Below, piece after piece: positions 1-37,056 of a stretch of DNA of 38,603 nt. The stretch is taken from positions 1-38,603 of the forward strand of contig CAZZYE010000005.1 in assembly GCA_964658145.1 (NCBI GenBank), read 5' to 3'. Below the pieces are notes generated by a model, which did no database searches, was not told where the DNA came from, and saw only the letters and a program-made list of their open reading frames with translations. A program made the translations under genes and the position numbers. The DNA is from an uncultured Stigonema sp. GTDB lineage: Bacteria; Cyanobacteriota; Cyanobacteriia; Cyanobacteriales; Nostocaceae. How positions within the stretch are numbered: the first letter of the stretch is position 1; every line of letters begins with the position of its first letter.

Positions 1-102
1 CTCTCTCACCTTTTTGTTTTTCTCTGCTACCCCAATTTATTGAGCCGATACGAAATTATCAAGAATTAATAAAGTAAAGTCTTTTAAGATGCTCAGTTTT
101 TG

Positions 103-115
103 GTGATTATATCAC
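103..115. promoter_or_regulatory. 13-bp palindrome GTGAT-TAT-ATCAC, candidate regulator-binding site
   Basis: 5-bp arms are perfectly complementary around a 3-nt spacer in AT-rich non-coding DNA upstream of the cluster. It loosely resembles CRP/NtcA-family or Fur-type half sites, but the spacing does not fit either consensus. Confidence 0.15.
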
Positions 116-350
116 AAAATTTGAGGCGCAAACGTGGCGTTGCACTTGGATAAGCTTGAGCGAACAAGCCGCTATAAAATACTACCTCTAAGGGTACTAT
201 CGCCGTCTAAGCGCACCTTCTATATTTAAGAGGAAAGTAAAACAAAACTTATTTTACCGAAAAGCAGGCAAACTAAACTGAATACTTAAACTGTGGTCTA
301 AACCTAAGTTGATAGGAAAAAGAAACTTGTCATGAGAACGATACCGTTGG

Positions 351-376
351 CAATATTGACGACGTTGTCAACATTG
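351..376. promoter_or_regulatory. imperfect inverted repeat CAATATTGAC-N6-GTCAACATTG, candidate operator
   Basis: 10-nt arms with one mismatch and a 6-nt spacer (gacgtt), in the non-coding leader about 400 bp upstream of the first + strand ORFs. Confidence 0.15.
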
Positions 377-445
377 ATGTTTAACCATGCGGCATAAGCT
401 GTCAAACTTTTAATTTGCATATTGAGCATAGACTAAAGTTTTGTG

Positions 446-467
446 GGGTGGGACGTATTGCCCGCCC
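446..467. other. GC-rich hairpin (GGGTGGG / CCCGCCC, 8-nt loop)
   Basis: 7-bp stem with one G-U wobble as RNA. The arm sequence is nearly the same as in the hairpin at 37235-37259 (tgcccgcccta vs tgcccacccta). No U-run follows, so it is not a classical terminator. Confidence 0.3.
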
Positions 468-620
468 TAAATATGCAAGTTAAAAGTACATTAGCGTACC
501 ACCACACTCATCCTTTTGCCTGGTCGTCGGTGAGCGAGGCAAAAGCACCTTTCTTATTTGTACGCACTGGAGTGCATAAGTGGATATTGCTTAAACCTAC
601 TAAGAATATAGAAGAAAGCG

Positions 621-770
621 ATGATCGCTGATCGCTTAACTTCTATTCAAGACAAAGCACGTAAACTAAAATACCAAGATGACCATATTCATCCTCAAAG
701 AAAGACCCTAGAAGCAAGCTACCAAAGCGTTAGCAAACAAACGGAACGTTGTATTAAAACCAAAAAATAA
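621..770 (+). CDS. candidate small ORF (49 codons), unknown function
   Basis: Read by hand and below the ORF-track cutoff: ATG 621 to TAA 768-770. Translation: MIADRLTSIQDKARKLKYQDDHIHPQRKTLEASYQSVSKQTERCIKTKK. It ends 12 nt before the next same-strand ORF. RBS is weak and I recognise no family. Confidence 0.2.
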   Translation: MIADRLTSIQDKARKLKYQDDHIHPQRKTLEASYQSVSKQTERCIKTKK

Positions 771-782
771 GGAAAGAAAACT

Positions 783-1109
783 ATGAACGAACTTGTCCAA
801 CGATTATCAAAGGGAGAACACCCTGTTGAAGTAAGCCTTAGACCAGAGAAAACGGTTACAGTTTTAAAAGAGTGTATTGACCGTGGATATATTCATATCA
901 AATTCACAGATACTAAAGGCGGTACTGATTTAGGTGTCAGACTCGATCCAACAGCATCTAATTTTAAAGAAGCTGACTTTGATCGCCAAACTGGTCAGGT
1001 TCATTTAGTTGGCAACTTGACACTTAATTACGTAAAAGTTCAATGTGTTGCAGATATTGAGATAGAAACGCTCTTAGGCAAGGGACATCTGGAACCTCTA
1101 GAGGAGTAA
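783..1109 (+). CDS. hypothetical small protein (108 aa) heading the NRPS operon
   Basis: ATG 783 is preceded by AAGGA (769-773). It lies on the same strand immediately upstream of the MbtH-like gene. I recognise no motif in the sequence (KFTDTKGGTDLGVRLD...). Confidence 0.5.
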   Translation: MNELVQRLSKGEHPVEVSLRPEKTVTVLKECIDRGYIHIKFTDTKGGTDLGVRLDPTASNFKEADFDRQTGQVHLVGNLTLNYVKVQCVADIEIETLLGKGHLEPLEE

Positions 1110-1192
1110 GATGTGGCTGTTACTCAAGAAACAGACAAATGCTAATCGCTACATTATGCAAATCAGAATGAGTGAAGGAATTGGAGGCAACA

Positions 1193-1405
1193 ATGAATAG
1201 AGATGACAAAGAAGATACGACAATTTATAAAGTTGTAGTGAATCACGAAGAACAGTATTCTATTTGGCCATCTGACCGAGATAACCCACTCGGCTGGCGT
1301 GACGGTGGCAAAACTGGTGTGAAAGAGGAATGTCTGGAATACGTTAAGCAAGTGTGGACTGACATGAGACCGCTGAGTCTTCGTCAGAAGATGGAGAAAT
1401 CCTAG
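1193..1405 (+). CDS. mbtH: MbtH-like NRPS accessory protein (70 aa from ATG 1193)
   Basis: Carries the family signature [52 protein letters not shown], with the invariant Trp residues and the WTDMRP motif. The track ORF opens at GTG 1172, but GGAGG (1183-1187) lies 5 nt before ATG 1193, which gives the usual family length of about 70 aa. Confidence 0.93.
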
Positions 1406-1502
1406 CACGGTTTTGATGGAAAAGTTGCTGGTTGTCGCCAGCAACGTTCCTTATGTAGAGATGATTGACTGCGTCTGGTTTTGATTGCTAAGGGAACAAC
1501 CA

Positions 1503-3230
1503 ATGACTGCTTATTTAAATGACTTACCAAATACCATATATAACCTTTCAACTTTAGTTGAACTTCTGCGCTACCGAGGGCAATACCAGCCTGACCAAAT
1601 TGCTTATACTTTTCTGCAAGATGGAGAAACTGAATCAAGCAGGCTCACTTATGGAGAATTAGACCAACAAGCACGGGCGATCGCAGCTTCTCTTCAGTCT
1701 ATCGGGACTAGTGGCGATCGCGCTTTACTGCTGTATCCACCAAGTCTAGAGTTTATTAGCGCTTTTTTCGGGTGTTTGTATGCCGGGATTGTGGCTGTTC
1801 CCGCTTATCCGCCTCGGCGGAATCAGAATTCATCTAGATTAGAGGCAATTGTAGCAGATGCCCAGGCGACTTTTGCGCTCACCACGACATCAGAGTTGGC
1901 AAACCTGGAGAGTCGATTGGCGTTGAATCCAGAATTGGCTGGGTTGCGCTGGCTAGCAACTGATAAAATAGACAGCGACTTGGGTAGTCACTGGCGGGAA
2001 CCGACATTAAGCAGGGAAACTTTGGCTTTTCTTCAGTATACTTCCGGTTCTACGGGAAAGCCGAAGGGTGTCATGGTCAGTCATGGTAATATATTACACA
2101 ACGAACGACTGATTAAGATGGCTTTCGGGCATACAGAGAAAACTATCTTTGTCGGCTGGTTGCCATTATTCCATGATATGGGGCTTATTGGAAATGTCTT
2201 ACAGCCCTTGTATTTGGGAATACCGAGCTTTCTGATGTCACCTGTAGCTTTTCTTCAGCAACCTGTTCGTTGGCTGCAAGCTATTTCCCGCTACAAGGCG
2301 ACTACCAGTGGCGGACCCAATTTTGCTTATGACCTGTGTGTGAGCAAGATTACTCCCGAACAAATCTCTAGTCTTGACTTGAGAAGTTGGGAAGTTGCTT
2401 TCAACGGTTCTGAACCTATCCGTGCGGAAACATTACAACGATTTGCTCGCAAGTTCGCTGATTGTGGTTTCCGTTGGGAAGCATTTTATCCCTGCTACGG
2501 GATGGCTGAGACGACTTTATTTGTTTCCGGGGGTTTAAAAACTGCGCCCCCCGTTCTGTACCAGCTTGAGGGAGCAGCCCTTGAAGAAAACCGGGTGCTT
2601 TTATCTACTTTAGACCAAGTTGATTCGCGGACAATTGTGGGTTGTGGTTTAACATTCTTTGACAAAATCGCGATTGTTGACCCCGAATCCAAGACCCAAT
2701 GTTTATCTGACAAAGTGGGAGAAATTTGGGTGTCAGGTTCGAGTGTAGCTCAGGGCTATTGGAATCGACCGGAAGTCACAGAACAAACTTTCAATGCTTT
2801 CATTGCAGAGACTAGCGCAAGCACGCCAGGAGCGTCAGGTCCGTTTTTGCGAACTGGAGATTTGGGATTTTTCCACAATGGGGAATTGTTTGTCACAGGT
2901 CGCCTGAAGGATATGATTATTATTCGCGGGCGCAACCATTATCCTCAAGATATTGAACTGACACTTGAGAAGAGTCATCCAGCGCTGCGCTTAGCTTGTA
3001 GCGCAGCGTTTGGGGTTGAAGTCAATGGCGAGGAAAGATTGGTTATTGCTTGTGAAGTAGAGCGAAGTTACCTGCGTCAGCTAGATGTGGATGAGGTAGT
3101 TAGGGCTATCCGCTCTGCGATATCAGAGCAGCACGAGATACAAGCCTATGGTGTTTTATTGCTCAAGACTGCAAGTATCCCGAAGACTTCTAATGGTAAG
3201 ATTCAGCGCCACGCTTGCCGAGTTGGTTTT
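1503..3230 (+). other. fatty acyl-AMP ligase (FAAL) loading domain
   Basis: N-terminal adenylate-forming domain with FAAL-type motifs (LTYGELDQQARAIAASL, FLQYTSGSTGKPKGV, LPLFHDMGL, GRLKDMIIIRGRNHYPQDIE). It is followed directly by an ACP, not by an amino-acid T domain. Confidence 0.85.
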
Positions 3231-6200
3231 TTAAATGAAAGTCTGGATGTTGTAGGTAGTAGCATCTTAGAAGACTCTTATGTCATAGATAATACAGATG
3301 AACTGATCCGCGAAACTCTTCTGGCAATGGAACCAGAAGACCAAAAGCGGTGGCTTTTGTCTTATGTTCAAGAGCGAGTGGCTCGGGTACTCAAAGTGCC
3401 ACCTTCTCAATTAGACCAACAGCAGCCTCTCAGTACCCTAGGTCTCGATTCTTTGATGGCTGTGGAGCTCAAGAACGAGATCGAAACTAGCTTGGGTGCT
3501 ATTTTGCCCATGACCAGTTTCCTTGAGGGTTCTAGCATTGCCCAGATGGCGATCGAGGTATTCAATCAGTTGACAGCAATTCCCTCTACCTCAGAAATGC
3601 ATCTTGTTCCAATTCAGGAAGCTGATGCTGAATATCCCCTCTCCTATGGTCAAAGGTCTCTGTGGTTTCTGCACCAGTTAGCACCAGAAAGCCCAGCTTA
3701 CAATATTGCAGCGGCTGTACGCCTGAGAGCAGATTTGGATATTCCTGCTCTGCAACGCACGTTTCAGAAACTGGTAGATCGTCATCCTGCCCTCAGGACG
3801 ACTTTCATTGCCCCTGATGGTGAACCTAGACAATGGGTTCATGAGTTCCGGGAGGTATACTTCTACAAGGAGGACGCATCGGCTTGGAGCGACGCATTCC
3901 TAAATAATCGCCTTGTTGAAGATGCTTACCGACCCTTTAATCTGGAGCAAGGTCCTTTACTGCGGGTCAGTTTATTCACTCGTTCAGCAAATGAATATAT
4001 CTTGCTGCTAGTTGTACATCACATTGTCGCTGACTTCTGGTCTTTGTCAGTACTCCTACAGGAGATGGGAAGACTTTATCAGGCAGAAAAAGACGGCACA
4101 ACAGTAGCGCTTGCTCCCTTGGTAATACAATATACCGACTATGCTCGCGCTTCAGCAGAAATGCTGGCAAACGCGGAAGGAGAGCGACTCTGGGCTTATT
4201 GGCAGAAGCAGCTGGCAGGGGAGTTACCAGCGCTGAATCTCCCTACTGACCGACCTCGACCTCCAGTTCAAACCTATCGAGGTGCTTCCCAGCCCTTCAA
4301 GTTAAATGCAGAATTGACTGAGAAGCTCAAAGCACTAAGCCGCGCTCACGGTGCTACTCTTTACATGACTTTGCTTGCTGCTTTTCAGGTACTGCTTTAT
4401 CGCTATACGGGTCAAGAAGACCTATTGGTAGGTTCGCCTACGGCTGGTAGGAGTCGGACTGAGTTGTCAGGATTAGTAGGTTATTTTGTTAACCCTGTAG
4501 TATGCCGTGCAAATTTTTCTGGTAATCCCAGTTTCAAAGCCTTTCTCAATCAAGTACGCTCTTCTGTACTAGATGCTTTTAAACACCAAGACTACCCCTT
4601 TGCCCTTTTGGTTGAGCGATTACAACCAACAAGGGATCTCAGTATATCTCCATTGTTCCAAGTTATGTTCGTCTTGCAGAAAGCGCACTTGCTGCATGAG
4701 GAAGGCTTGACAGCGTTTGCTTTGGGCGAAACGGGAGCACGGATGAATCTGGGGGATCTGGAACTGGAGTCTTTGGGACTGGAACAACGGATAGCTCAGT
4801 TTGATTTGACACTGACGATGGCTGAAGTGGAGTCTGGAATAGCCGCATCGCTTGAGTACAGCACTGACTTGTTTGATGCGAGTACTATAGACCGGATGGT
4901 GGGACATTTACAAACGTTGCTGGAAGAGATTGTCGCTAATCCAGAGCAGCCAGTTTCTAAATTACCCCTGTTGACGGCATCTGAGCAGCATCAGTTGGTG
5001 GAGTGGAATAAGACCCAGACCAATTATCCCCAAGATAAGTGTATCCATCAGTTGTTTGAGTCGCAGGTGGAACGCACTCCCGATACAGTCGCGGTGGTGT
5101 TTGAAAACCAACAACTGACTTATGGGGATCTGAACTCCCGCGCCAATCAACTGGCGCACCATCTGCAAGCCCTGGGAGTAGGACCAGAGGTGTTGGTAGG
5201 TGTTTGTGTTGAGCGCTCCCTAGAGATGGTTTTAGGACTGCTTGGGATTCTCAAGGCAGGTGGGGCTTACGTGCCGTTAGACCCGCAATTACCCAAAGAG
5301 CGCTTGGCTTATATGCTGAATGATTCCCAAGTGTCAGTGATGTTAACTCAAGACAAATGGGTGAGTGGTTTGCCTGAAAATGGGACATGCGTAGTTTTCT
5401 GCTTGGATCAACAATGGGAAACACTTTCTGTTGAGAGTGAGGACAATCTCATCAGTGGTGTGCAAGTCGATCATCTGGCTTATATGATTTACACCTCAGG
5501 CTCCACCGGAAAACCAAAAGGAGCGATGAACACCCACCGTGGAGTTAGCAATCGCTTGCTTTGGATGCAGGATATCTACCGATTAACCGCAGCAGATCGG
5601 GTTTTACAGAAGACTCCTTTGAGTTTCGATGTCTCTGTTTGGGAGTTATTCTGGCCATTGTTGAGTGGAGCGAGCTTAGTTGTGGCGCAACCAGGTGGAC
5701 ATCAAGATAGTGCTTATTTAGTGAAGCTGATGGCCTGTGAGAAAATTACCACAGTTCATTTCGTGCCATCAATGCTTCAGGTTTTCTTGCAAGAACAAGG
5801 ACTGGACAGTTGCAGTGGCTTGCAAAGAGTGTTCTGTAGTGGAGAAGCGTTATCATTTGAACTGCAACAACGCTTTTTTGCTCGTTTAGGGTGTGAATTA
5901 CACAATCTCTACGGTCCGACGGAAGCTGCTATTGATGTCACCTTCTGGCAATGCTTGCAAAACAGCTATCTGACAAAAGTGCCCATTGGTCGTCCCATCG
6001 CCAACACACAAATTTACATTCTTGATCGCCATTTCCAACCGATGCCCATTGGCGTTCCAGGGGAATTGCACATTGGTGGTGTTGGTTTGGCACGAGGCTA
6101 CCTTAACCGCCCTAGCTTAACAAGTGAAAAATTCATCCCCAACCCGTTGAGCGATGAACCAAATGCCCGCCTGTATAAAACTGGTGATCAAGCACGTTAT

Positions 6201-8243
6201 CTAAGCGACGGTAACATCGAGTTTCTTGGTCGCATAGATCATCAAGTGAAAATTCGTGGCTTCCGCATTGAACTTGGAGAAATTGAGGCGGTGCTGAATC
6301 AACACCCACAAGTGCAGGATAACGCAGTCATCACCCGAGAAGATCACCTTGGCAACAAACGCTTAGTGGCTTATATTGTTCCTGTCCAAGAGCCACCTTC
6401 TGTAGCTGAACTGCGAAACTTCCTGAAGCAGAGGGTTCTCGAATACATGGTCCCAAGTGCCTTTGTGATTTTAGAGACGATGCCACTGACGCCGAATGGT
6501 AAGGTAGACCACCGTGCTTTACCAACACCAGATACTTCCCAGCGGAATTTAGATGTTGGTTTTGAGCCACCCTGTACCCCAGTAGAAAAGAGTTTAGCCG
6601 CCATTTGGGCTGAAGTCTTGGGGTTGGAAAAAGTCGGGATTCGCGACAACTTCTTTGAGTTGGGAGGAGATTCCATCCTCAGTATTCAGGTGATTGCCCG
6701 CGCCAATCAAGCGGGTCTAGTGCTCACCCCCAAACAGTTATTTCAGCATCAAACTATTGCCGACTTAGCTACCATCACAGACACAACCCAAGGCGTTCAA
6801 GCTGAACAAGGTATCGTGATCGGTCCAGTACCCCTGACCCCCATCCAGCACTGGTTCAAAGAGCAGAATCTACCCCAGCCGCACCATTATAACCAATCGC
6901 TCCTGCTGGAAGTGCCACCAGATTTGAACCCAGAATTATTAGAGCAAGTCGTGCGGCAATTGTTGCGACATCACGATGCCCTGCGCCTGCGGTTTGTGCA
7001 GTCCGGTGATTACTGGGAGCAAATGAATGCCACCATAGAAGAAACAGTGCCTTTGAGCGTGGTAAATTTGTCACAAATGTCCTCAGACGAGCAGCAAACA
7101 GCTGCCATTGAGGCTGTTGCCAGCGAACTACAAGCCAGTCTTAACCTGTTAACAGGACCAATCATGCGAGTGGCTTTGTTTCAGTTAGGCATAGATCAAC
7201 CAGGGCGTTTGCTAATCATCGTACATCACCTCATGGTGGATGGCGTCTCATGGCGGATTTTGCTGGAGGATCTCGCTAGTGCCTACCAACAGCTGTGCCA
7301 GGGCGAAGCGATTCAACTACCCGCGAAAACAACTTCTTTCCAGCAGTGGGCGCAACGGCTGACGGAGTATGGGCAATCACAAGCCCTAGCTACGGAGTTG
7401 GAGTATTGGCTAGCTCAGTATGAGTCTGGTGTTACTTGTTTGCCAGTGGATTATCCCATAGATCAACAAGTCAACACTGTTGCTTCGGCTGCAATTGTGT
7501 CAGTGTCTCTGAGTGTGGAACAAACCTGCGCCTTACTACAAGAAGTGCCTTCTGCCTACAATACCCAAATTAACGATGTGCTGCTGACTGCTTTAGTGCA
7601 GAGCTTACAAGCGTGGACTGGAGAGCGCTGCTCAGTGCTCATTGACCTTGAAGGTCATGGACGAGAGGAATTATTTAAAGATGTCGATCTGTCGCGCACA
7701 GTGGGCTGGTTCACCACTATCTTTCCCGTGCGGTTAGAGCTAAGGGAGCTTAACCATCCAGGATCGGCTTTGAAGTCGGTGAAAGAACAATTGCGTCGCT
7801 TGCCAAATCGCGGTATCGGCTACGGTATTTTGCGGTATTTGAGTCAAGACGCTACAACGCGCTCAAAACTACAGTCTCTTCCCGAAGCACAAGTAAGTTT
7901 TAACTACCTTGGTCAGTTGAAATGGGTGGATTCAAAATCTTTTGTGCTAGGGTCTGCAAAAGAGTCCTGCGGACCAGCTCATAATCAGCTGGGAAATCGT
8001 CGCCATCTGCTGGAAGTGAACGGATTTGTAGCTTCAGGCAAGCTACAACTGGATTGGACTTACAGCGAGAAGGTTCATCAACGAACCACTGTTGAGCGTC
8101 TGGCTCAGGGTTTTATCCAGGCTTTACAAGTTCTTATTTCCCACTGCCAGTCCTCTGATGTTGGAGGCTATACCCCTTCAGATTTCCCGCTTGCAAGGCT
8201 AAATGAGGAAAAACTTAATAAACTGTTCACTATGCTCGATTAA
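1503..8243 (+). CDS. NRPS 1: FAAL-ACP-C-A(Ser)-T-E (lipoinitiation plus D-Ser module)
   Basis: The track frame opens at TTG 1485; the first ATG is 1503 (MTAYLNDL). FAAL motifs: YTSGSTGKPKGVMVSHGNILHN and WLPLFHDMGLIG. ACP: LGLDSLMAVE (Ser codon 3450-3452). C: HHIVADFWS (about 4015). A: YTSGSTGKPKG, hand-extracted code DVWHFSLIDK, which reads as Ser (compare EntF DVWHFSLVDK). T: GGDSILSIQ (Ser codon 6672-6674), the form typical of T domains that feed E domains. E: HHLMVDGVSW and EGHGRE. The tail TPSDFPLARLNEEKLNKLFTMLD is COM-donor-like. Confidence 0.97.
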   Translation: MTAYLNDLPNTIYNLSTLVELLRYRGQYQPDQIAYTFLQDGETESSRLTYGELDQQARAIAASLQSIGTSGDRALLLYPPSLEFISAFFGCLYAGIVAVPAYPPRRNQNSSRLEAIVADAQATFALTTTSELANLESRLALNPELAGLRWLATDKIDSDLGSHWREPTLSRETLAFLQYTSGSTGKPKGVMVSHGNILHNERLIKMAFGHTEKTIFVGWLPLFHDMGLIGNVLQPLYLGIPSFLMSPVAFLQQPVRWLQAISRYKATTSGGPNFAYDLCVSKITPEQISSLDLRSWEVAFNGSEPIRAETLQRFARKFADCGFRWEAFYPCYGMAETTLFVSGGLKTAPPVLYQLEGAALEENRVLLSTLDQVDSRTIVGCGLTFFDKIAIVDPESKTQCLSDKVGEIWVSGSSVAQGYWNRPEVTEQTFNAFIAETSASTPGASGPFLRTGDLGFFHNGELFVTGRLKDMIIIRGRNHYPQDIELTLEKSHPALRLACSAAFGVEVNGEERLVIACEVERSYLRQLDVDEVVRAIRSAISEQHEIQAYGVLLLKTASIPKTSNGKIQRHACRVGFLNESLDVVGSSILEDSYVIDNTDELIRETLLAMEPEDQKRWLLSYVQERVARVLKVPPSQLDQQQPLSTLGLDSLMAVELKNEIETSLGAILPMTSFLEGSSIAQMAIEVFNQLTAIPSTSEMHLVPIQEADAEYPLSYGQRSLWFLHQLAPESPAYNIAAAVRLRADLDIPALQRTFQKLVDRHPALRTTFIAPDGEPRQWVHEFREVYFYKEDASAWSDAFLNNRLVEDAYRPFNLEQGPLLRVSLFTRSANEYILLLVVHHIVADFWSLSVLLQEMGRLYQAEKDGTTVALAPLVIQYTDYARASAEMLANAEGERLWAYWQKQLAGELPALNLPTDRPRPPVQTYRGASQPFKLNAELTEKLKALSRAHGATLYMTLLAAFQVLLYRYTGQEDLLVGSPTAGRSRTELSGLVGYFVNPVVCRANFSGNPSFKAFLNQVRSSVLDAFKHQDYPFALLVERLQPTRDLSISPLFQVMFVLQKAHLLHEEGLTAFALGETGARMNLGDLELESLGLEQRIAQFDLTLTMAEVESGIAASLEYSTDLFDASTIDRMVGHLQTLLEEIVANPEQPVSKLPLLTASEQHQLVEWNKTQTNYPQDKCIHQLFESQVERTPDTVAVVFENQQLTYGDLNSRANQLAHHLQALGVGPEVLVGVCVERSLEMVLGLLGILKAGGAYVPLDPQLPKERLAYMLNDSQVSVMLTQDKWVSGLPENGTCVVFCLDQQWETLSVESEDNLISGVQVDHLAYMIYTSGSTGKPKGAMNTHRGVSNRLLWMQDIYRLTAADRVLQKTPLSFDVSVWELFWPLLSGASLVVAQPGGHQDSAYLVKLMACEKITTVHFVPSMLQVFLQEQGLDSCSGLQRVFCSGEALSFELQQRFFARLGCELHNLYGPTEAAIDVTFWQCLQNSYLTKVPIGRPIANTQIYILDRHFQPMPIGVPGELHIGGVGLARGYLNRPSLTSEKFIPNPLSDEPNARLYKTGDQARYLSDGNIEFLGRIDHQVKIRGFRIELGEIEAVLNQHPQVQDNAVITREDHLGNKRLVAYIVPVQEPPSVAELRNFLKQRVLEYMVPSAFVILETMPLTPNGKVDHRALPTPDTSQRNLDVGFEPPCTPVEKSLAAIWAEVLGLEKVGIRDNFFELGGDSILSIQVIARANQAGLVLTPKQLFQHQTIADLATITDTTQGVQAEQGIVIGPVPLTPIQHWFKEQNLPQPHHYNQSLLLEVPPDLNPELLEQVVRQLLRHHDALRLRFVQSGDYWEQMNATIEETVPLSVVNLSQMSSDEQQTAAIEAVASELQASLNLLTGPIMRVALFQLGIDQPGRLLIIVHHLMVDGVSWRILLEDLASAYQQLCQGEAIQLPAKTTSFQQWAQRLTEYGQSQALATELEYWLAQYESGVTCLPVDYPIDQQVNTVASAAIVSVSLSVEQTCALLQEVPSAYNTQINDVLLTALVQSLQAWTGERCSVLIDLEGHGREELFKDVDLSRTVGWFTTIFPVRLELRELNHPGSALKSVKEQLRRLPNRGIGYGILRYLSQDATTRSKLQSLPEAQVSFNYLGQLKWVDSKSFVLGSAKESCGPAHNQLGNRRHLLEVNGFVASGKLQLDWTYSEKVHQRTTVERLAQGFIQALQVLISHCQSSDVGGYTPSDFPLARLNEEKLNKLFTMLD

Positions 8244-8279
8244 GTTGATTCAACATCCACATTCTTGGAGAAATTTAAT

Positions 8280-27062: not shown

Positions 27063-27130
27063 AAAAACCCGGTTTCTTTGAATTGGGTCAAGGAAAAATT
27101 AGTCTTTCCAAGTACAGAAACCGGGTTTTT
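27063..27130 (+). terminator. terminator-like 15-bp perfect inverted repeat with U-run between NRPS 4 and NRPS 5
   Basis: AAAAACCCGGTTTCT (27063-27077) and AGAAACCGGGTTTTT (27116-27130) are exact reverse complements. The second arm runs into T6 (27126-27131). The 38-nt loop holds an inner ggaaa/tttcc pairing. The element starts 5 nt after the NRPS 4 stop codon. Confidence 0.4.
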
Positions 27131-27190
27131 TCTGCCCAATGGGTGATTAATAAACCGAGGCTTTAGCAGAATCATCAAGTGAGGTTTTTA

Positions 27191-30100: not shown

Positions 30101-31240
30101 ACACCTAACGGCAAGGTGGATCGTCGGGCGCTTCTCGCACCAGATATTAAACTTAATCTGGAAGCAAGTTTTCTCCCACCCCGCAACCTGCTAGAACTGC
30201 AAATGACTCACATCTGGGAAACTCTTCTAGGTGCTCACCCCATTGGAGTCCAAGACAACTTTTTTGACCTCGGTGGTCATTCCCTTTTAGCTCTTCGCTT
30301 GATGGCTCAGATTCAACAGCAGTTCGGGAAAAGTTTGCCTCTAGCCACACTTTTCCAAGGTGCAACTATTGAGTATCTGACAAGTATTCTCCAAAAGCAT
30401 TCAGATCCTCAACCCTCGTCTCCCTTAGTAGCACTTCAACCTAGTGGTAACCTGCCACCTTTCTTCTGCATCCACCCAGTTGGTGGTAACGTCTTTTGCT
30501 ATACACATTTAGCTCGTCATCTTGGCTTTGAACAACCATTTTACAGCTTGCAATCACCAGGTCTTAATGGAGAACGAGAACCCCATACATGCATTGAAGA
30601 TATGGCTGCCCACTATATTGAAGCACTACAAACTATTCAGCCCCAAGGTCCTTACCACCTTGGAGGTTGGTCGAATGGTGGTGTTGTTGCTTTTGAAATG
30701 GCGCAGCAGTTGCACGCTTGTGGGCATGAAGTTGCACTGCTAGCTTTAATAGATAGCTATGCACCTACTGCCATTGATATCACTGAAGAAATCGATGAGG
30801 CAATCTTAATCACCTCAATTGCTAGTGACTTAGGCGGTCTTTTCGGTAAGGAGTTGGTTATATCAGTCGATGAACTACAGAACCTCGAAACGGAAGAGCA
30901 ATTGAACCATATTTTAGAGCAAGCAAAAATGGTCAATATCTTGCCTCCAGAAGTTGGGCAAAAGCAGATGCGCCATCTGTTGCAAGTTTACAAAGCTAAC
31001 ATCCAAGCTATGTCTCACTATACACCCCAGCCTTACTCAGGTCCAGTGACTCTCTTCTATGCTAGCGAGCAAGTTACGGAAGTAACCGAAGAACAAATTA
31101 TCGGCTGGGGTAAGGTAGCTGTTGGCAGTATAGAAACCCACAACATTCCTGGCAACCATTACACCATTCTCCGCAAACCCCATGTTCATATTCTAGCTGA
31201 ACAGCTAAAAACTTACTTCCAGCAAACAGGGGATAAATAA
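27191..31240 (+). CDS. NRPS 5: C-A(Gly)-T-TE (termination module)
   Basis: The track frame opens at GTG 27179. GAGG (27181-27184) lies 6 nt before ATG 27191. C: HHIISDGW. A: [11 protein letters not shown], code DILQLGLVWK, which reads as Gly. T: [11 protein letters not shown]: GWSNGG (Ser codon 30671-30673), with IPGNHYTIL near the C-terminus. Confidence 0.97.
30430..31237 (+). other. type I thioesterase (release) domain
   Basis: [15 protein letters not shown] (oxyanion region), the GxSxG nucleophile GGWSNGG, and the C-terminal GNH motif. Confidence 0.85.
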
Positions 31241-31241
31241 G

Positions 31242-32567
31242 ATGGCAAAACGCCCTGTGGCTACTAAAATGTGGGCTTTCATTCTTATATGGTTCGGACA
31301 ACTTGTCTCCCTCTGTGGGTCTGCCCTCACTGGCTTTGCCTTGGGTGTCTGGGTTTACCAGCGCACAGGGTCAGTCACCCAATTCGCTCTCATTTCTCTG
31401 TTTGCTCAGTTACCAATGATTGTAATTTCCCCTGTCGCTGGTGTCTTTGTAGACCGATGGAACCGACGTTGGGCGATGATTCTTAGTGACTCTGGGGCTG
31501 GGCTGGGTACTTTAGCGATCGCCCTCCTCTTTGCCACTGGTCGCCTGGAAATCTGGCACATTTACCTACTGACCGCCGTCATCTCTGCGTTCAATGCCTT
31601 CCAGTGGCCAGCTTATAGCGCTGCTACCACTCTGTTAGTGCCTAAACAGCACCTAACTCGCGCTAGTGGTATGACTCAGCTAGGAGAAGCGATCGCTCAA
31701 CTCATCTCACCTATACTGGGAGGTTTGTTAGTAGTCACCATCCAGCTACAGGGCGTGATCCTGCTTGACTTCGCCACCTTCCTCTTCTCCGTGGGCACCC
31801 TGCTTTTAGTTCGGTTCCCTGAAGCCAAAACCACTACCGCAGGAATTGCAAAGAAAACTGCGTTGTTGCAAGACGCTGCTTATGGCTGGACCTACATCAT
31901 CGCCCGACCAGGATTGCTAGGACTGCTCATTTTCTTTGCTGCTAACAACTTCCTTGTAGGAGTTGTTACCGTACTATTCACACCCTTAGTGCTATCCTTT
32001 ACCTCAGCAACCGTCCTTGGCACCATCCTGTCCCTCGCAGGTCTGGGGCTGTTGGTAGGCAGTTTGGCAATAAGTACTTGGGGAGGACCGCAGCGACTGA
32101 TCTACAGTTTGTTAGGCTTTGAGTTGTTGGGTGGACTGTGCATCTTGGTTGCTGGGTTACGCACCTCCGTCCCACTTCTTGCCCTCACAGCTTTCCTGTT
32201 CTTTTTTGGCACAGCAATCATCAATAGTTGCAGTCAAACCATTTGGCAAAGAAAAGTTGCACTTGAGGTGCAGGGAAGAGTCTTTGCCATCAGACGAATG
32301 ATTGCCTGGTCATCCCAACCACTAGCGTATCTCATCGCGGGACCGTTAACTGACTGCGTGTTTGAGCCATTAATGGCACCCAAAGGTCCCTTAGCCAGCA
32401 GCATCGGACAAATCATCGGCGTTGGACCTGGTCGCGGCATTGGCTTACTGTTCATCCTCATGGGATCGCTCACCATGCTCACAACCATTGCTGCCTATCA
32501 GTATCCCCGGTTGCGGCTAGTTGAAAATGAATTACCAGATGCCATTGCTGATGAAGCTTCTGGTTAG
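31242..32567 (+). CDS. MFS transporter (EntS / 'transmembrane secretion effector'-like), putative product exporter
   Basis: ATG lies 1 nt after the NRPS 5 stop. The protein is hydrophobic throughout, with about 12 predicted TM segments. The motif GVFVDRWNRRWAMILSD is typical of MFS loop 2-3 (D-R-x-x-R-R). This family commonly sits in siderophore and NRPS clusters. Confidence 0.85.
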   Translation: MAKRPVATKMWAFILIWFGQLVSLCGSALTGFALGVWVYQRTGSVTQFALISLFAQLPMIVISPVAGVFVDRWNRRWAMILSDSGAGLGTLAIALLFATGRLEIWHIYLLTAVISAFNAFQWPAYSAATTLLVPKQHLTRASGMTQLGEAIAQLISPILGGLLVVTIQLQGVILLDFATFLFSVGTLLLVRFPEAKTTTAGIAKKTALLQDAAYGWTYIIARPGLLGLLIFFAANNFLVGVVTVLFTPLVLSFTSATVLGTILSLAGLGLLVGSLAISTWGGPQRLIYSLLGFELLGGLCILVAGLRTSVPLLALTAFLFFFGTAIINSCSQTIWQRKVALEVQGRVFAIRRMIAWSSQPLAYLIAGPLTDCVFEPLMAPKGPLASSIGQIIGVGPGRGIGLLFILMGSLTMLTTIAAYQYPRLRLVENELPDAIADEASG

Positions 32568-32678
32568 TGGTTAAGAGCAATTAACAATCAATTAATTACT
32601 AACTAGTAGCAGTTTTCATCAGAAATATTGCACTTTAAACGTACATCAAGTCAATTATACAAGAAAGTTGAAAAAACT

Positions 32679-33746
32679 ATGACACATCAATTGATGGATA
32701 TAACTTCAATCACCGATGGGATTTTAGGAACAATCGGTAATACACCATTGGTCAAATTGAACCGAGTTTTCAAAGATGCTCATTTTCAGCTTTTTGCGAA
32801 GTTGGAAATGTTTAATCCAGGAGGTAGTATCAAAGACCGTCCAGCCTTAAACATGCTAAAACATTTGTTTCTACAAGGAGATATTGGACCCGGAACTACA
32901 ATTATTGAATCCAGCTCGGGAAATTTAGGTATCGGTCTAGCGCAAGCATGTACTGTTCTTGGGTTGCATTTTATATGTGTAGTCGATCCCAAAACAACCC
33001 AACAAAATATTAACATCCTCAAAGCTTATGGAGCAGAGGTTGTTCTCGTGAGCAAACCCGACCCCATCACAGGGGATTTTTTGCCAGCTCGCATTAACCG
33101 AGTGAAATCATTGCTCGCTTCCATTCACAATAGTTTTTGGTGTAACCAGTATGCCAACTTGAATAATGCACATGCCCATCATCAGACGATGAACGAGATT
33201 GTTACGACCCTCAATGGAAAAGTTGACTACTTATTCTGCGCCACTGGTAGCTGTGGCACGCTCCGAGGCTGCGCTGAATATGTCAGAAGTCACAATCTCA
33301 ACACAAAAATTATCGCTGTAGATGCTAAAGGGAGTGTCATTTTTGGTGGTAAAAGAGGCAAACGTCTCATCCCTGGGCATGGTGCGGCGCGAGTCCCAGA
33401 GTTGTTACAGCCCGGACTAAAGGATGAACATATATATGTATCTGATTGGAATTGTGTTGTTGGTTGTCGTCATTTGCTAAGTCGGGAGGCAATATTGGCT
33501 GGAGGCTCTTCAGGGGGAGTTATAACGGCGATTGCGAAAAAAGGACATGAAATACCTAATGGTGCAATTTGTGTTGCCATTCTCTGCGATCGCGGTGAGC
33601 GCTACCTTGACACAATCTATTCAGACACTTGGGTCGAGGAACACTTCGGTAGCGTTGAATTGAACATTACACAATTACAGAATGATTTGGTAGTTCAGCT
33701 TCCTAACTCTTGTTCCAAATCATTACACCCTTATGCAAGCGTTTAA
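32679..33746 (+). CDS. sbnA: PLP-dependent cysteine-synthase-fold enzyme, SbnA-like (first step of L-2,3-diaminopropionate synthesis)
   Basis: IGNTPLVKL...KLEMFNPGGSIKDRPA (PLP lysine)...ESSSGNLG...GTGSCGT resembles Staphylococcus SbnA (VGQTPMVQL...KLEYMNPGGSMKDRPA, recalled). It is paired with an SbnB-like gene. The track frame opens at TTG 32628; the first ATG is 32679. Confidence 0.8.
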   Translation: MTHQLMDITSITDGILGTIGNTPLVKLNRVFKDAHFQLFAKLEMFNPGGSIKDRPALNMLKHLFLQGDIGPGTTIIESSSGNLGIGLAQACTVLGLHFICVVDPKTTQQNINILKAYGAEVVLVSKPDPITGDFLPARINRVKSLLASIHNSFWCNQYANLNNAHAHHQTMNEIVTTLNGKVDYLFCATGSCGTLRGCAEYVRSHNLNTKIIAVDAKGSVIFGGKRGKRLIPGHGAARVPELLQPGLKDEHIYVSDWNCVVGCRHLLSREAILAGGSSGGVITAIAKKGHEIPNGAICVAILCDRGERYLDTIYSDTWVEEHFGSVELNITQLQNDLVVQLPNSCSKSLHPYASV

Positions 33747-33782
33747 CAAAAAATTAAAGTTTTTCAACCAAAAGGATTTACT

Positions 33783-34814
33783 ATGAATCGCGATGACATA
33801 CTTTTCTTAAAAGGTGATGAGATTCTTGCGCTGTTCAAAAAATGTGAACAGGAAATACTGCAGACTGTAAAGTTAACTTATCAAATCCATGCTCAAGGTG
33901 ATAGCAGCCAACCTCATTCTAGCTTTTTGCGTTTTCCAAATAATGACAAAAATAGAATTATTGCGTTACCAGCTTACTTGGGTGGTGAGTTGAATACAGC
34001 AGGTATCAAATGGATTGCTTCTTTTCCAGATAATTTAGTTATGGGTATGGAGCGAGCCTCGGCTGTTTTAATCCTAAATTCAACACAAACGGGTCGCCCA
34101 CAAGCTATTATGGAAGCTTCTGCAATCAGTGCAAAACGCACTGCCGCTAGTGCTGCTCTCGCTGCGCATTACTTGCGAGGCGAGCAATTATTAGCTACAG
34201 TTGGAATAATTGGCTGTGGTTTGATAAATTTTGAAACCGTTCGCTTTCTCTTAGCCACTCACCCTGAAATAGAAACCTTGTTCATTTATGACTTAAGTAG
34301 GGAAAGAGCAGAACAATTCAATCGTAAATGCAAACAAATATCCACTCAATTAAAAGTGGTAATTTTGTCAGAAGCAAATGCTATTTTCCAACAGGCTTCT
34401 GTAATTTCCTTGGCGACAACCGCAAGCAAGCCACACATATTCGATATTTCCAAATGTCTTCCTGGTAGTATTATTTTGCATACTTCTCTACGAGACTTAT
34501 CACCGGAAATAATCTTATCATCTGATAACATTGTCGATGACATAGATCATGTCTGCCGTGCTCAAACATCTATTCATCTTGCGGAACAACTAACTGGTGA
34601 CAGAGATTTTATTAGAGCTACTCTTGGTGATGTGCTCAATGGCATTGCCCTAGGACAACAAGACAACAGTAAAATTACCATCTTCAGTCCTTTTGGGCTT
34701 GGCATACTCGACATCGCACTAGGGCAGTTAGCCTACAAATTAGCTATTGAGCAAAACCAAGGAACCACAATCCAATCATTCTTGCCGACTTCTTGGTTAC
34801 AACGCGAAGAATAA
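33783..34814 (+). CDS. sbnB: ornithine cyclodeaminase/mu-crystallin-family NAD-dependent enzyme, SbnB-like (second step of L-Dap synthesis)
   Basis: RIIALPAYLGGE...AGIKWIASFPDN...MERASAVLILN...AIMEASAISAKRTAA...GIIGCGLINFE closely parallels recalled SbnB (RIIAMPSHIGGE...SGIKWIGSKHDN...MERASGVIILN...AVMEASLISSMRTAA...TIIGCGLIGDK). AAAGGA RBS precedes ATG 33783. Confidence 0.82.
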   Translation: MNRDDILFLKGDEILALFKKCEQEILQTVKLTYQIHAQGDSSQPHSSFLRFPNNDKNRIIALPAYLGGELNTAGIKWIASFPDNLVMGMERASAVLILNSTQTGRPQAIMEASAISAKRTAASAALAAHYLRGEQLLATVGIIGCGLINFETVRFLLATHPEIETLFIYDLSRERAEQFNRKCKQISTQLKVVILSEANAIFQQASVISLATTASKPHIFDISKCLPGSIILHTSLRDLSPEIILSSDNIVDDIDHVCRAQTSIHLAEQLTGDRDFIRATLGDVLNGIALGQQDNSKITIFSPFGLGILDIALGQLAYKLAIEQNQGTTIQSFLPTSWLQREE

Positions 34815-34872
34815 TAAACGAAGTCAGAAGCATGTACGTCTAAGCAATTCAAAATTCAAAGTATCAAAGATA

Positions 34873-37056
34873 ATGTTTACCTTTCTAACACATTGGTTTC
34901 ATCTTAGACGCCGAAAACATTCTCCTTCTTTGAAGGATTTACCAAAGGAGAGTAAGCGCTATCCACTTAGGGTTTTCAAAGGAAAATTATTTCCCTGTTT
35001 ACTATTAACTCTCACTCTCATCCTGACTTTACTGGTAGGAAACTATAATCCTACCTTCGGGTCAAGAACAACTGAAATACTCTGGGACACTTATGGCGTT
35101 CCTCATATTTACGGCAAGGATGCACAAAGCGCCTTCCACGCCTTTGGTTGGGCGCAAATGCAAAGCCACGGCAACCTGATTTTACGCCTCTACGGTCAGG
35201 CACGCGGACGAGCCGCCGAATATTGGGGGAAGAAGTACTTAGAATCAGATCAATGGGTAAGAACAATGGGTGTCCCGGCTCGTGCCCAGTCTTGGTACAA
35301 TTCACAAAATCCGAATTTTCGCAAGTATCTTGATGCTTTTGCCGCTGGAATCAATGACTATGCCCAAGCACATGCCGATCTGATTGACGACCAAGTAGAA
35401 GTTGTACTGCCCATCAATGGGGTAGACTTGCTAGCTCATGTTCAGCGCGTACTCAACTTCACTTTTGTAGTCGATCCACAAAGTGTCGCAGGTGTAAGTG
35501 ATAAAGCTCCCTCAGTAGGTTCTAACGGCTGGGCGATCGCCCCTGCACATTCTGGTAGTGGTAACGCGATGCTGCTGGCAAACCCACATCTCCCTTGGTC
35601 AGATTTATTCCTCTGGTATGAAACCCATCTGACCGCCCCTGGTATTAATACTTACGGTGCAGCACTTGTTGGTATCCCCGTCCTGGCAATTGCCTTCAAC
35701 AACAATTTGGGCTGGACCCACACAGTGAATACACACCATGGGTGGAATGCTTACAAGCTAACACTGGCTGACGGAGGCTACCGCTTTGATGGCAAGGTTA
35801 AAGCCTTTGAGACAGAAGAACAAACCCTGAAGGTAAAGCAAGATGACGGCACACTGCGCTCAGAAAAACTTGTCGTCAAGCGCTCAATACACGGTCCTGT
35901 GGTTAGAGAAAAAGATGGCAAAGCTGTTGCACTCCGCGTTGTCGGACTTGATCGCCCTGGTGTACTAGAGCAGTGGTGGGATATGGGGCGTGCCACAAAT
36001 CTCACCGAGTTTGAAACTGCACTTAAGCGCTTGCAGTTGCCCATGTTTACGGTCATGTACGCAGATCGAGAAGGGCACATCATGCACCTGTTCAACGGTG
36101 TTGTTCCAGTTCACTCCCAAGGCGATTTTAAATACTGGTCAGGCATTGTTCCTGGAGATACTTCTACCACTTTATGGACCAAAACTCACCCTTACCGCGA
36201 CCTACCCCGCGTGGTCGATCCACCAAGCGGCTGGTTACAAAATGCCAACGATCCGCCTTGGACAACAACATTTCCACAGGTGCTTAACCCAGATAAATAT
36301 CCACCCTACATGGCTCCACGTGGTCCTATGTCCTTCCGAGCACAGCGTTCAGCCCATATGCTGGCTGAAGATAAAAAAATCTCTTTCCAAAAAATGATTC
36401 AATACAAGCACTCAACACGCATGGAACTAGCCGATCGCCTACTCGACGATCTAATTCCAGCTGCGCGGCAACTAGGTAATTCTAAAGTGCGTCAGGCTGC
36501 TGATGTACTGCAAGCCTGGGATAGTCAAGCCGATGCAAATAGCCGTGGTGCCGTACTCTTTTCCTTCTGGGTAAAACAAATGGGCTTCCCCAAATCATTT
36601 GCCATTCCTTGGAACGAGAAATCTCCACTCACCACACCTGATGGCTTAGCCGATCCAAAGAACGCAGTAGCAGCCCTCGATGTTGCTGCAACCAAAGTAG
36701 AAAAAGCTTATGGTGCGCTTGATGTGCCGTGGGGAGAAGTCTTCCGGTTGCGCTATAATAAAATGGATCTACCCGCTAATGGGGGCGATGGAAGTCTCGG
36801 CATCTTCCGGGTTATCGATTTTGCCCCGACTTCAGATGGACGATTTGCCCCTGTGGAAGGCGATAGCTACGTCGCAGCAATTGAATTCTCCAACCCAGTA
36901 AAAGCTATGGTACTCACCAGCTACGGCAACGCCACTCAGCCCGGTTCGCCGCACACAGGTGACCAGTTGAAGTTATTCGCTCGTAAGGAGTTGCGACCTG
37001 CTTGGCGAACCCGCCAGGAAATACAAGCCAACTTGACTAAGCGCGAAGTCTTGTAG
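34873..37056 (+). CDS. Ntn-hydrolase acylase of the penicillin-amidase / PvdQ / AHL-acylase family, with N-terminal membrane anchor or signal
   Basis: The track frame opens at TTG 34747, inside sbnB; the first ATG is 34873. Hydrophobic segment: LFPCLLLTLTLILTLLVG. The autoprocessing site and nucleophile are at ...APSVG|SNGWAIAP (Ser codon 35521-35523), followed by MLLANPHLPW and the FNNNLGWTHTVN motifs of the family. Confidence 0.9.
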   Translation: MFTFLTHWFHLRRRKHSPSLKDLPKESKRYPLRVFKGKLFPCLLLTLTLILTLLVGNYNPTFGSRTTEILWDTYGVPHIYGKDAQSAFHAFGWAQMQSHGNLILRLYGQARGRAAEYWGKKYLESDQWVRTMGVPARAQSWYNSQNPNFRKYLDAFAAGINDYAQAHADLIDDQVEVVLPINGVDLLAHVQRVLNFTFVVDPQSVAGVSDKAPSVGSNGWAIAPAHSGSGNAMLLANPHLPWSDLFLWYETHLTAPGINTYGAALVGIPVLAIAFNNNLGWTHTVNTHHGWNAYKLTLADGGYRFDGKVKAFETEEQTLKVKQDDGTLRSEKLVVKRSIHGPVVREKDGKAVALRVVGLDRPGVLEQWWDMGRATNLTEFETALKRLQLPMFTVMYADREGHIMHLFNGVVPVHSQGDFKYWSGIVPGDTSTTLWTKTHPYRDLPRVVDPPSGWLQNANDPPWTTTFPQVLNPDKYPPYMAPRGPMSFRAQRSAHMLAEDKKISFQKMIQYKHSTRMELADRLLDDLIPAARQLGNSKVRQAADVLQAWDSQADANSRGAVLFSFWVKQMGFPKSFAIPWNEKSPLTTPDGLADPKNAVAALDVAATKVEKAYGALDVPWGEVFRLRYNKMDLPANGGDGSLGIFRVIDFAPTSDGRFAPVEGDSYVAAIEFSNPVKAMVLTSYGNATQPGSPHTGDQLKLFARKELRPAWRTRQEIQANLTKREVL

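Follow-up and report, generated by a model that had tools for sequence, protein, structure and literature searches.

An intact, orphan, fatty acyl-AMP ligase-primed nonribosomal peptide synthetase cluster of an uncultured cyanobacterium, with a predicted acyl-D-Ser-glycerate leader and a candidate deacylase

The window described here is the whole stretch of DNA that was analyzed, being 38,603 nt of an uncultured Stigonema sp. (contig CAZZYE010000005.1 of GenBank assembly GCA_964658145.1, positions 1 to 38,603), and its subject is a cluster of nonribosomal peptide synthetase (NRPS) genes. Judged by its sequence, this cluster is an intact, orphan NRPS assembly line of an uncultured cyanobacterium, primed by an FAAL (fatty acyl-AMP ligase). 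The window has twelve substantial open reading frames (ORFs), eleven of which lie on the + strand between 783 and 37056. Five uninterrupted, co-directional NRPS genes (1485-31240) encode a loading unit of FAAL and acyl carrier protein (ACP) and seven extension modules, as assigned with Pfam and NCBIfam. These modules are built from condensation (C), adenylation (A), peptidyl carrier protein (PCP), epimerization (E) and thioesterase (TE) domains, together with an FkbH domain having a haloacid dehalogenase (HAD) core, a vicinal oxygen chelate (VOC) domain and a monooxygenase (MOx). The other abbreviations used in the list of features are MFS, major facilitator superfamily; Dap, 2,3-diaminopropionate; PLP, pyridoxal phosphate; and Ntn, N-terminal nucleophile.

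783-1109, + strand: orf108, a 108-aa CBF-beta-fold protein (Pfam CBF_beta, E 7.7e-8)
1172-1405, + strand: MbtH-like protein (MbtH signature in the translation; gene callers start it at 1193)
1485-8243, + strand: NRPS1, FAAL (about 1548-3254)-ACP-starter C-A(Ser)-PCP-E (about 6852-8243) (Pfam)
8265-12227, + strand: NRPS2, DCL-type C-VOC (9669-9995)-FkbH (HAD core 10704-11672)-PCP (Pfam Condensation, Glyoxalase_4, PP-binding)
12224-20041, + strand: NRPS3, TubC-type docking domain, C-A(DIWELTADDK)-PCP and C-A(Gly)-PCP with MOx (Pfam)
12609-13958 and 15849-17198, + strand: copies 1 and 2 of a perfect direct repeat of 1350 nt, identical in sequence, inside NRPS3
17807-18745, + strand: luciferase-like monooxygenase, within the Gly A domain of NRPS3, between motifs A4 and A5
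20387-27058, + strand: NRPS4, C-A(DIWELTADDK)-PCP and C-A(Val)-PCP (Pfam)
27179-31240, + strand: NRPS5, C-A(Gly)-PCP-TE, with TE at about 30458-31207 and nucleophile motif GWSNG (Pfam)
31242-32567, + strand: MFS exporter, MFS_3/EntS-like (Pfam MFS_1 and MFS_3; NCBIfam relatives EntS and macrolide-efflux)
32628-33746, + strand: SbnA-family PLP enzyme, first step of L-Dap synthesis (TIGR03945, 443 bits against a cut-off of 350)
33783-34814, + strand: SbnB-family dehydrogenase, second step of L-Dap synthesis (TIGR03944, 421 bits against a cut-off of 327)
34873-37056, + strand: Ntn acylase of the PvdQ/penicillin-amidase family (PF01804, 457 bits), with a hydrophobic anchor at the N-terminus and the nucleophile motif SNGW
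from 37308, - strand: purB (adenylosuccinate lyase, housekeeping), the downstream border of the cluster

The order of the domains is FAAL-ACP, Cs-A(Ser)-PCP-E, DCL-VOC-FkbH-PCP, C-A(X)-PCP and C-A(Gly, MOx)-PCP for the loading unit and modules 1-4, followed by C-A(X)-PCP, C-A(Val)-PCP and C-A(Gly)-PCP-TE for modules 5-7 (Cs is the starter C domain). In a motif scan of the NRPS proteins, all the expected catalytic signatures are found. HHxxxD is present seven times (in six C domains and in E), the serine of a carrier eight times, and A3, A8 and A10 occur in all six amino-acid A domains, while FkbH has the HAD motif DxDxT and TE has GWSNG. An earlier, sequence-only reading of this DNA had described an intact, co-directional cluster with one loading and seven extension modules in five NRPS genes, accompanied by MbtH, an MFS exporter, a Dap-supply pair and an acylase; all of this is borne out. 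Both gene junctions that it gave are exactly right as well, one being an ATGA overlap (12224-12227) and the other TAA-g-ATG (31238-31244). Contigs from sibling samples, which have been assembled independently, match window 1-12663 at 99.0-100%, the only differences being one single-nucleotide polymorphism, stretches of N and, in contig L103, the loss of 29 nt between two genes. No frameshifts occur among these differences; the reading of the locus as decayed or frameshifted was rejected on these grounds, and the claim of an intact cluster therefore stands. The HIP1 palindrome GCGATCGC occurs 12 times in the window (for example at 1677, 1714, 37950 and 38011), compared with 0.27 occurrences expected by shuffling, which supports the cyanobacterial origin of the whole contig including the NRPS genes.

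Each copy of the direct repeat in NRPS3 extends over the greater part of a C domain and just into the A domain that follows it. The product of the same gene in an independent assembly (P0250) differs from that of the window at 16 residues, every one of them inside the repeat, being 8 positions in a 120-aa patch that are mirrored in both copies exactly 1080 residues apart. Most simply, the two real copies are slightly different and each assembler has collapsed them onto one variant, the alternative being concerted evolution between strains; on both views the reading frame and the number of modules stay the same, but the exact sequence of these two C domains is not to be trusted. It is very improbable that the locus only seems intact and is decayed or was assembled as a chimera, for instance with the C domains of NRPS3 mis-joined and the modules in the wrong order or number. 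In favor of such a fault are the perfect repeat, the mirrored differences, which are the sole differences from the independent assembly and the signature of a collapsed repeat, and the low coverage of the sibling contigs (about 3-6x). Against it, the same 2605-aa ORF is present in two independent assemblies, each copy of the repeat has unique, in-frame sequence on both sides, all catalytic motifs are intact, and window 1-12663 is confirmed by other contigs.

The specificity codes have been obtained by aligning each A domain to GrsA-PheA, with a reference sequence that returned its own code (DAWTIAAICK) correctly:

Module 1: DVWHFSLIDK, Ser
Modules 3 and 5: DIWELTADDK (identical), a short cationic side chain, probably Dap
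Module 4: DILQMGMIWK, Gly
Module 6: DAFWLGGTCK, Val
Module 7: DILQLGLVWK, Gly

These codes, together with the FkbH domain, reproduce the collinear order acyl-D-Ser-glycerate-X-Gly(MOx)-X-Val-Gly that had been read from the sequence before, X being the residue of modules 3 and 5. FAAL families match residues 14-590 of NRPS1 with 353-613 bits, and the best PDB matches of this region are the FAALs 7r7e-g, 3kxw and FadD23. The 613-bit match aligns the FAAL to positions 9-566 of NCBIfam NF004282, a 4334-position NRPS model, which we take to be PvdL-like. The ACP serine is residue 655, in the motif LGLDSL, and a C domain comes directly after the ACP. It is predicted that the FAAL loads a fatty acid and that the starter C domain N-acylates Ser. 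The Ser code of module 1 is followed by an E domain (motif HHLMVDG), which therefore would convert Ser to D-Ser, such that NRPS1 should make N-acyl-D-Ser. NRPS2, having no A domain, is the predicted glycerate module, in which FkbH (TIGR01686, 291 bits against a cut-off of 147; LDCDQT, the DxDxT motif, at residue 820) would load glyceryl-S-PCP from a phosphoglycerate. Its C domain lies before FkbH and its carrier (residues 1232-1295) after it; the C domain, which comes after the E domain of NRPS1, has the motif FHHLLIDGW, which is typical of the DCL subtype. This C domain would join acyl-D-Ser to the glycerate hydroxyl, and the link must be an ester because glyceryl-S-PCP has no amine. The chain would then be extended by Dap (provided by SbnA and SbnB), Gly, Dap, Val and Gly, with the in-line flavin mononucleotide-dependent monooxygenase alpha-hydroxylating the Gly of module 4 on its carrier, and would be released by the TE. 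The predicted pro-form is N-acyl-D-Ser-O-glyceroyl-Dap-(alpha-OH)Gly-Dap-Val-Gly.

In kind, the cluster appears to be a known one: an NRPS that is primed by a FAAL and would have an acyl(-D-Ser)-glycerate leader, with familiar building blocks placed in a new order. FAAL-ACP-C-FkbH(HAD)-T is the start architecture of the vioprolide and corramycin lines, in which the fatty acid is esterified to glycerate and the acylated precursor is deacylated during export, as reported for vioprolide and proposed for corramycin (PMC10099666). In these myxobacterial systems, as in the window, the FAAL-ACP feeds a C domain directly, FkbH puts glycerate on a carrier and a C domain esterifies the acyl donor. However, the contiguous FAAL-ACP-C-FkbH-T is absent from the window, where A(Ser)-PCP-E-C-VOC intervenes; the rest of the peptide has no relation to theirs, and the Ntn acylase is the candidate for the hydrolase. 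With a Ser module between FAAL-ACP-C and FkbH, the donor to glycerate would therefore be N-acyl-D-Ser and not a bare fatty acid. In Nostoc sp. CCY 9925 (L067), FAAL-ACP-C-FkbH-PCP is one 1892-aa protein, with an orf108 homologue upstream, and its FAAL-ACP-C part is 59% identical to that of the window.

The earlier reading had considered it unusual that the FAAL-ACP feeds a C domain directly, in the absence of a polyketide synthase (PKS). The architecture is as described, and Pfam finds no ketosynthase, acyltransferase or aminotransferase domain in any ORF of the window, but its unusualness is not upheld, as shown by vioprolide and corramycin (PMC10099666) and by Nostoc sp. CCY 9925. The mix of modules had also been called unusual; its single features have precedents (the FkbH start, and MtaG, MelG and SolF for the Gly-MOx module), and it is the combination that is particular. 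As far as the domain order tells, the new elements are the D-Ser module (A-PCP-E) and second C domain between the lipoinitiation C domain and FkbH, the VOC domain before FkbH, the use of an MtaG-type A4/A5 Gly-MOx in the middle of the line, and the two Dap-type modules. The puwainaphycin/minutissamide and cyanochelin systems are likewise FAAL-initiated and cyanobacterial, and orf108, MbtH and MFS are found again as an accessory set in loci of this type, but in these systems, and in hassallidin, the acyl chain is passed to PKS and/or aminotransferase modules. The cyanochelin gene cluster was rejected as a relative, being a PKS/NRPS hybrid with beta-hydroxy-Asp.

In the earlier reading the module order could not be assigned to a known product, which agrees with the database searches, in which no named or characterized protein is close to NRPS2, and the best full-length match among 5.8 billion proteins is 61% identical and metagenomic, on a contig of the Joint Genome Institute (JGI). 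This 10.9-kb contig (L081) is the nearest relative of the head of the cluster; orf108 is 91% identical there, MbtH 95%, NRPS2 (VOC domain included) 61% and the start of NRPS3 79%. The code of its first amino-acid module is a different one (DVRHFAFLAK), and this module is without an E domain. The A domain of the module is interrupted in core motif A8, at 5780-5830 of L081 (…QVKIRD*, followed by a new ORF), by a frameshift or deletion if not by a mistake in sequencing. Among the representative genomes of GTDB, NRPS2 finds mostly generic C-domain matches; the VOC/FkbH region is matched only in L001-L003, L034 and L067, at no more than 58% identity and in most cases just over the FkbH part. A megablast search of a plasmid collection with NRPS2 gave no match, and in the literature searched no publication matches the cluster or joins Dap, glyceric acid and cyanobacterial lipopeptides.

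In the Gly module of NRPS3, the monooxygenase (TIGR04020, 539 bits against a cut-off of 244) is inserted between FDISVLE and NMYGPTE, that is between A4 and A5. The same insertion is found in the Gly modules of MtaG and MelG (myxothiazol and melithiazol), which are terminal C-A-MOx-A-T-TE modules that generate a terminal amide by carbinolamide cleavage (PMC10204066, PMC11411415), unlike the module of the window, which is in the middle of the line with three more modules before the TE. In SolF (solanimycin), the module is also in the middle of the line, but the insertion is at A8/A9; its alpha-hydroxyglycine is retained, as it is in solanimycin B, spergualin and skyllamycin (PMC10204066). It is possible, then, that the alpha-hydroxyglycine of the predicted chain is kept (as in solanimycin B), with release of the full heptamer, or that it collapses to a C-terminal amide and a glyoxylyl-peptide (as for MtaG), in which case carbinolamide collapse would yield acyl-D-Ser-O-glyceroyl-Dap-NH2 and glyoxylyl-Dap-Val-Gly. 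If the acyl chain is taken to be C14:0, the neutral monoisotopic masses calculated by hand are 804.459 for the linear pro-form (C35H64N8O13; [M+H]+ 805.467), 788.464 without the hydroxyl group, 507.229 for glyceroyl-Dap-(OH)Gly-Dap-Val-Gly (C18H33N7O10), and 488.321 (C23H44N4O7) and 316.138 (C12H20N4O6) for the acylated and the glyoxylyl product of cleavage.

The VOC domain of NRPS2 (residues 469-577) matches the glyoxalase I structures 2qh0 and 3hdp (E 1e-16). An exhaustive search of representatives gives 1149 relatives (among them P0371-P0413), 29 of which are at E <= 1e-30, and many of them lie inside proteins of 1200-3700 aa. FkbH is located about 330 residues downstream of the VOC domain in all seven megasynthases tested. 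In some cases the VOC-FkbH unit is a loading module (VOC-FkbH-PCP-C...), in others it follows a C domain, as it does in the window. An alignment of 38 sequences shows conservation of all four canonical metal ligands (His, Glu, His, Glu). Most FkbH modules are without a VOC domain, and a metagenome scan with the VOC-FkbH part returned FkbH loading modules, almost all of which lack it; in the literature searched, no mention was found of FkbH together with a glyoxalase. Glyoxalase I and methylmalonyl-CoA epimerase proceed through enolate or enediolate intermediates next to a thioester. By analogy, the substrate of the VOC domain is most likely the glyceryl thioester and the intermediate an enediolate, and from this chemistry it can be guessed that the domain carries out C2 epimerization of glyceryl-S-PCP. 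Dehydration to a pyruvoyl group by this domain is unlikely because the upstream C domain needs the hydroxyl.

The pocket of the code shared by modules 3 and 5 combines Glu278, Asp330 and Asp331 with the bulky Trp239, which argues for a short cationic side chain. The chemistry of SbnA and SbnB has been described (PMC10906522). The pair in the window resembles the SbnA/SbnB pathway (staphyloferrin B; SulG/H, CmnB/K) in that both enzymes score above the equivalog cut-offs and are clustered with NRPS modules having acidic, short pockets. It differs in its context, which is a cyanobacterial lipodepsipeptide line and not that of a monobactam, a tuberactinomycin or an NRPS-independent siderophore. 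Of the other loci retrieved, just one has clear sbnAB genes beside a terminal NRPS module, that of Nostoc sp. NMS2 (L073), where a module with the code DIWEITADD adjoins a TE-MFS-SbnA-SbnB cassette that is 68-77% identical to that of the window (68% for the MFS protein), and this links the acidic code to Dap supply. In L073, the NRPS ends in C-C-A(DIWEITADD)-PCP-TE and is followed by MFS, SbnA, SbnB and an HlyD/FtsX/ABC export set (9986-22540); it is probably a second cyanobacterial NRPS that uses Dap. A search of the PDB with the A domain of module 3 gave generic NRPS A domains only, with no Dap or Dab (2,4-diaminobutyrate) reference structure among them. When the pocket chemistry is considered together with the co-occurrence of sbnAB, X is probably L-2,3-diaminopropionate. 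SbnA/SbnB are present in only a limited subset of cyanobacteria according to a genomic study (cited in the review PMC9414260). If the assignment is true, the cluster offers a testable route to peptide-bound Dap in cyanobacteria, and bears on the debate over the source of 2,3-Dap and of diamino acids of the beta-N-methylamino-L-alanine type in cyanobacterial samples.

The acylase gene starts 59 nt after sbnB on the same strand. Its start is probably the ATG at 34873 and not the TTG at 34747 of the mechanically called ORF, and the exact 727-aa form is on record. The N-terminus is basic and followed by a hydrophobic stretch, and the context of the Ntn nucleophile is VGSNGW. Orthologues are widespread in cyanobacteria, at 66-87% identity, the best named relative being that of Dulcicalothrix desertica (86%), which, like the abundance of HIP1, agrees with a cyanobacterium of Nostocales type. 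In the six cyanobacterial loci examined (70-86% identity), the orthologue is always beside NRPS or siderophore genes, at the edge of the locus and often accompanied by MbtH, MFS_3 and a type II TE:

L108: NRPS about 4 kb away
L109: upstream orf108, MbtH, Asp hydroxylase, MFS_3, TE and carrier protein; downstream FecCD/ABC genes
L111: TE, MbtH and orf108
L113: MbtH and TE
L114: NRPS with tailoring genes and MbtH
L115 (Mastigocladopsis repens): upstream FAAL-ACP-C NRPS, TonB-dependent receptor, periplasmic binding protein and MFS_3; downstream FecCD

This linkage in six of six loci argues that the acylase acts on NRPS products, and specifically on FAAL-primed ones. In the pyoverdine pathway of Pseudomonas, PvdQ removes the acyl chain. 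The window resembles the PvdL/PvdQ system in that the first NRPS has an N-terminal acyl-AMP ligase, a PvdQ-family Ntn hydrolase with an export anchor is present and a short diamino acid would be used, but it lacks the Glu-Tyr-Dab chromophore modules, a PvdE-type ABC exporter and uptake genes, and its acylase scores only 255 bits with NF051460 (PvdQ), against an equivalog cut-off of 950. The linkage of the acylase, the vioprolide and corramycin precedent and the PvdL-like start together favor an acyl pro-form that is exported and then deacylated. By analogy with these systems, we consider that there is about a one in two chance that the lipid is a removable leader, such that the acylated pro-form leaves the cytoplasm and loses its acyl chain outside it. 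In the proposed sequence of events, the MFS protein would export the acylated precursor and the membrane-anchored acylase would strip off the fatty acid outside the cytoplasm, leaving as the mature product a glycerate/Dap peptide that would be small, polar and cationic and act as an antibiotic or a metallophore.

Several observations weigh against this leader function, in addition to the low PvdQ score. The acylase is at the edge of the cluster, as the last gene before purB on the opposite strand, JGI names several of its orthologues acyl-homoserine-lactone (AHL) acylase, and in Nostoc sp. NMS2 no acylase is found in the 5 kb downstream of sbnB, where the HlyD/FtsX/ABC set is present instead. 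Many cyanobacterial FAAL lipopeptides, including the best-known ones in the literature, keep their lipid. As for the structure of the product, Dab is also conceivable for DIWELTADDK, to which Dap is assigned only from pocket chemistry and gene co-occurrence, and this code has no published match in the main texts and two supplementary tables consulted; the function given to the VOC domain is only a guess; and every chemical step is read from the sequence, the product being still hypothetical. The naming of the orthologues, the place of the acylase next to purB and the lipids kept by the best-known lipopeptides also speak for a retained lipid, giving a cationic lipodepsipeptide that is membrane-active like the polymyxin/octapeptin class, with two Dap amines and the tail as the pharmacophore. 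The TE might then cyclize the product, and the acylase would be a general AHL/quorum-quenching or self-protection enzyme with no part in maturation; two short cationic residues plus a lipid are, moreover, a classic antimicrobial design. Nevertheless, a general quorum quencher is not expected to lie beside NRPS-type genes in six of six loci, the published FAAL-ACP-C-FkbH systems are described or proposed to yield deacylated products, and the D-Ser-glycerate ester is a built-in labile joint, so that retention of the lipid is possible but rather unlikely.

If the lipid is indeed a removable leader, the logic known from pyoverdine, vioprolide and corramycin extends to cyanobacteria, and the acylase/MFS_3/MbtH/orf108 set, found here and in the six loci, marks FAAL-NRPS clusters whose real products are not lipopeptides, which would change the mining of such clusters by mass spectrometry. 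In other respects, this is one more orphan NRPS cluster among the many in Nostocales-type genomes.

The acylase loci also bear on whether the product is a siderophore or other metallophore made by pyoverdine-like logic, with a membrane-tethered acyl precursor, export by an EntS-type MFS protein and periplasmic deacylation, the Dap amines and alpha-hydroxy groups acting as ligands. SbnA and SbnB are the Dap enzymes of staphyloferrin B, a siderophore role has been suggested for 2,3-Dap in cyanobacteria (PMC9414260), the exporter is confirmed to be of the MFS_3/EntS type, orthologues of the acylase lie within loci having FecCD, a TonB-dependent receptor and a periplasmic binding protein (L109, L115), and the start of the line, with its FAAL, is similar to the acyl-ligase part at the N-terminus of NF004282. 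On the other hand, no catecholate, hydroxamate, beta-hydroxy-Asp or free alpha-hydroxycarboxylate is predicted, and no receptor or uptake genes (TonB receptor, FecCD) are present in the 38.6 kb. A simple promoter/terminator scan of the upstream region (1-782) gave nothing above chance, promoters being at chance level, and no iron-box-like element was seen there, where no formal Fur-box pattern search was made. The lack of uptake genes and of obvious Fe(III)-chelating groups weakens the metallophore option, also as an outcome of the removable-leader reading, and we regard this role as doubtful.

A further reading joins the ester, the Gly-MOx module and the VOC domain. The pro-form would be doubly self-immolative, in effect giving two products, and the VOC domain would be a previously undescribed carrier-bound 2-hydroxyacyl-thioester epimerase; taken together, this is improbable. 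Deacylation may expose a free alpha-amino ester (D-seryl-O-glycerate), which is labile and falls off tracelessly, and the carbinolamide made by the mid-line monooxygenase may split the chain into a glyceroyl-Dap-amide, a zwittermicin-like polar warhead, and glyoxylyl-Dap-Val-Gly, while the VOC domain may set the stereochemistry of glycerate in a whole class of NRPS modules. The zwittermicin A pathway of Bacillus cereus reportedly has an N-acyl-D-amino-acid leader, FkbH chemistry, an SbnA/B-type Dap supply and a proposed oxidation of Gly to a terminal amide, which splits one product into several; unlike the window, its line reportedly mixes PKS and NRPS, and has acyl-D-Asn as the leader and a peptidase of the ClbP type. 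These similarities are to be taken as a lead only.

Of the small genes at the head of the cluster, the ORF at 783 had been taken into the accessory set unrecognized in the sequence-only reading; it codes for the CBF-beta-fold protein orf108, which is not MbtH. The AlphaFold model of orf108 (pLDDT 92) matches CBF-beta 1io4_D in Foldseek with a TMq of 0.77 at 25% identity, and the top 38 PDB matches of the model are all CBF-beta (the fold of the metazoan core-binding factor beta). Its 619 homologues are mostly cyanobacterial, 71-91% identical, and recur in NRPS and siderophore loci. NCBI names these homologues 'MbtH domain protein', whereas the Pfam match is CBF_beta and not MbtH; the MbtH family of Pfam is assigned to the next gene, in its identical copy in sibling contig L102. 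The orf108 gene is directly upstream of MbtH in L081 (324-686), L109 (3689-4015) and L111 (8291-8617). Thus orf108 is a conserved accessory of cyanobacterial NRPS loci, possibly with the role of another small chaperone or adaptor for NRPSs. Two recurring parts are candidates for enzymology, this CBF-beta-fold protein beside MbtH and the VOC domain that is fused to FkbH.

Just upstream of orf108 there is a 49-aa ORF (621-770) without a family match; those sibling assemblies that extend over it have a gene call for it. The 29 nt that are missing from L103 belong to the spacer between orf108 and MbtH (window 1108-1136). A scan of 1-1600 finds 5 terminator-like sites, compared with 1.2 expected. 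Between MbtH and NRPS1, at 1424-1445, there is a 9-bp GC-rich hairpin (GTTGCTGG…CCAGCAAC), which could be an attenuator or a processing site.

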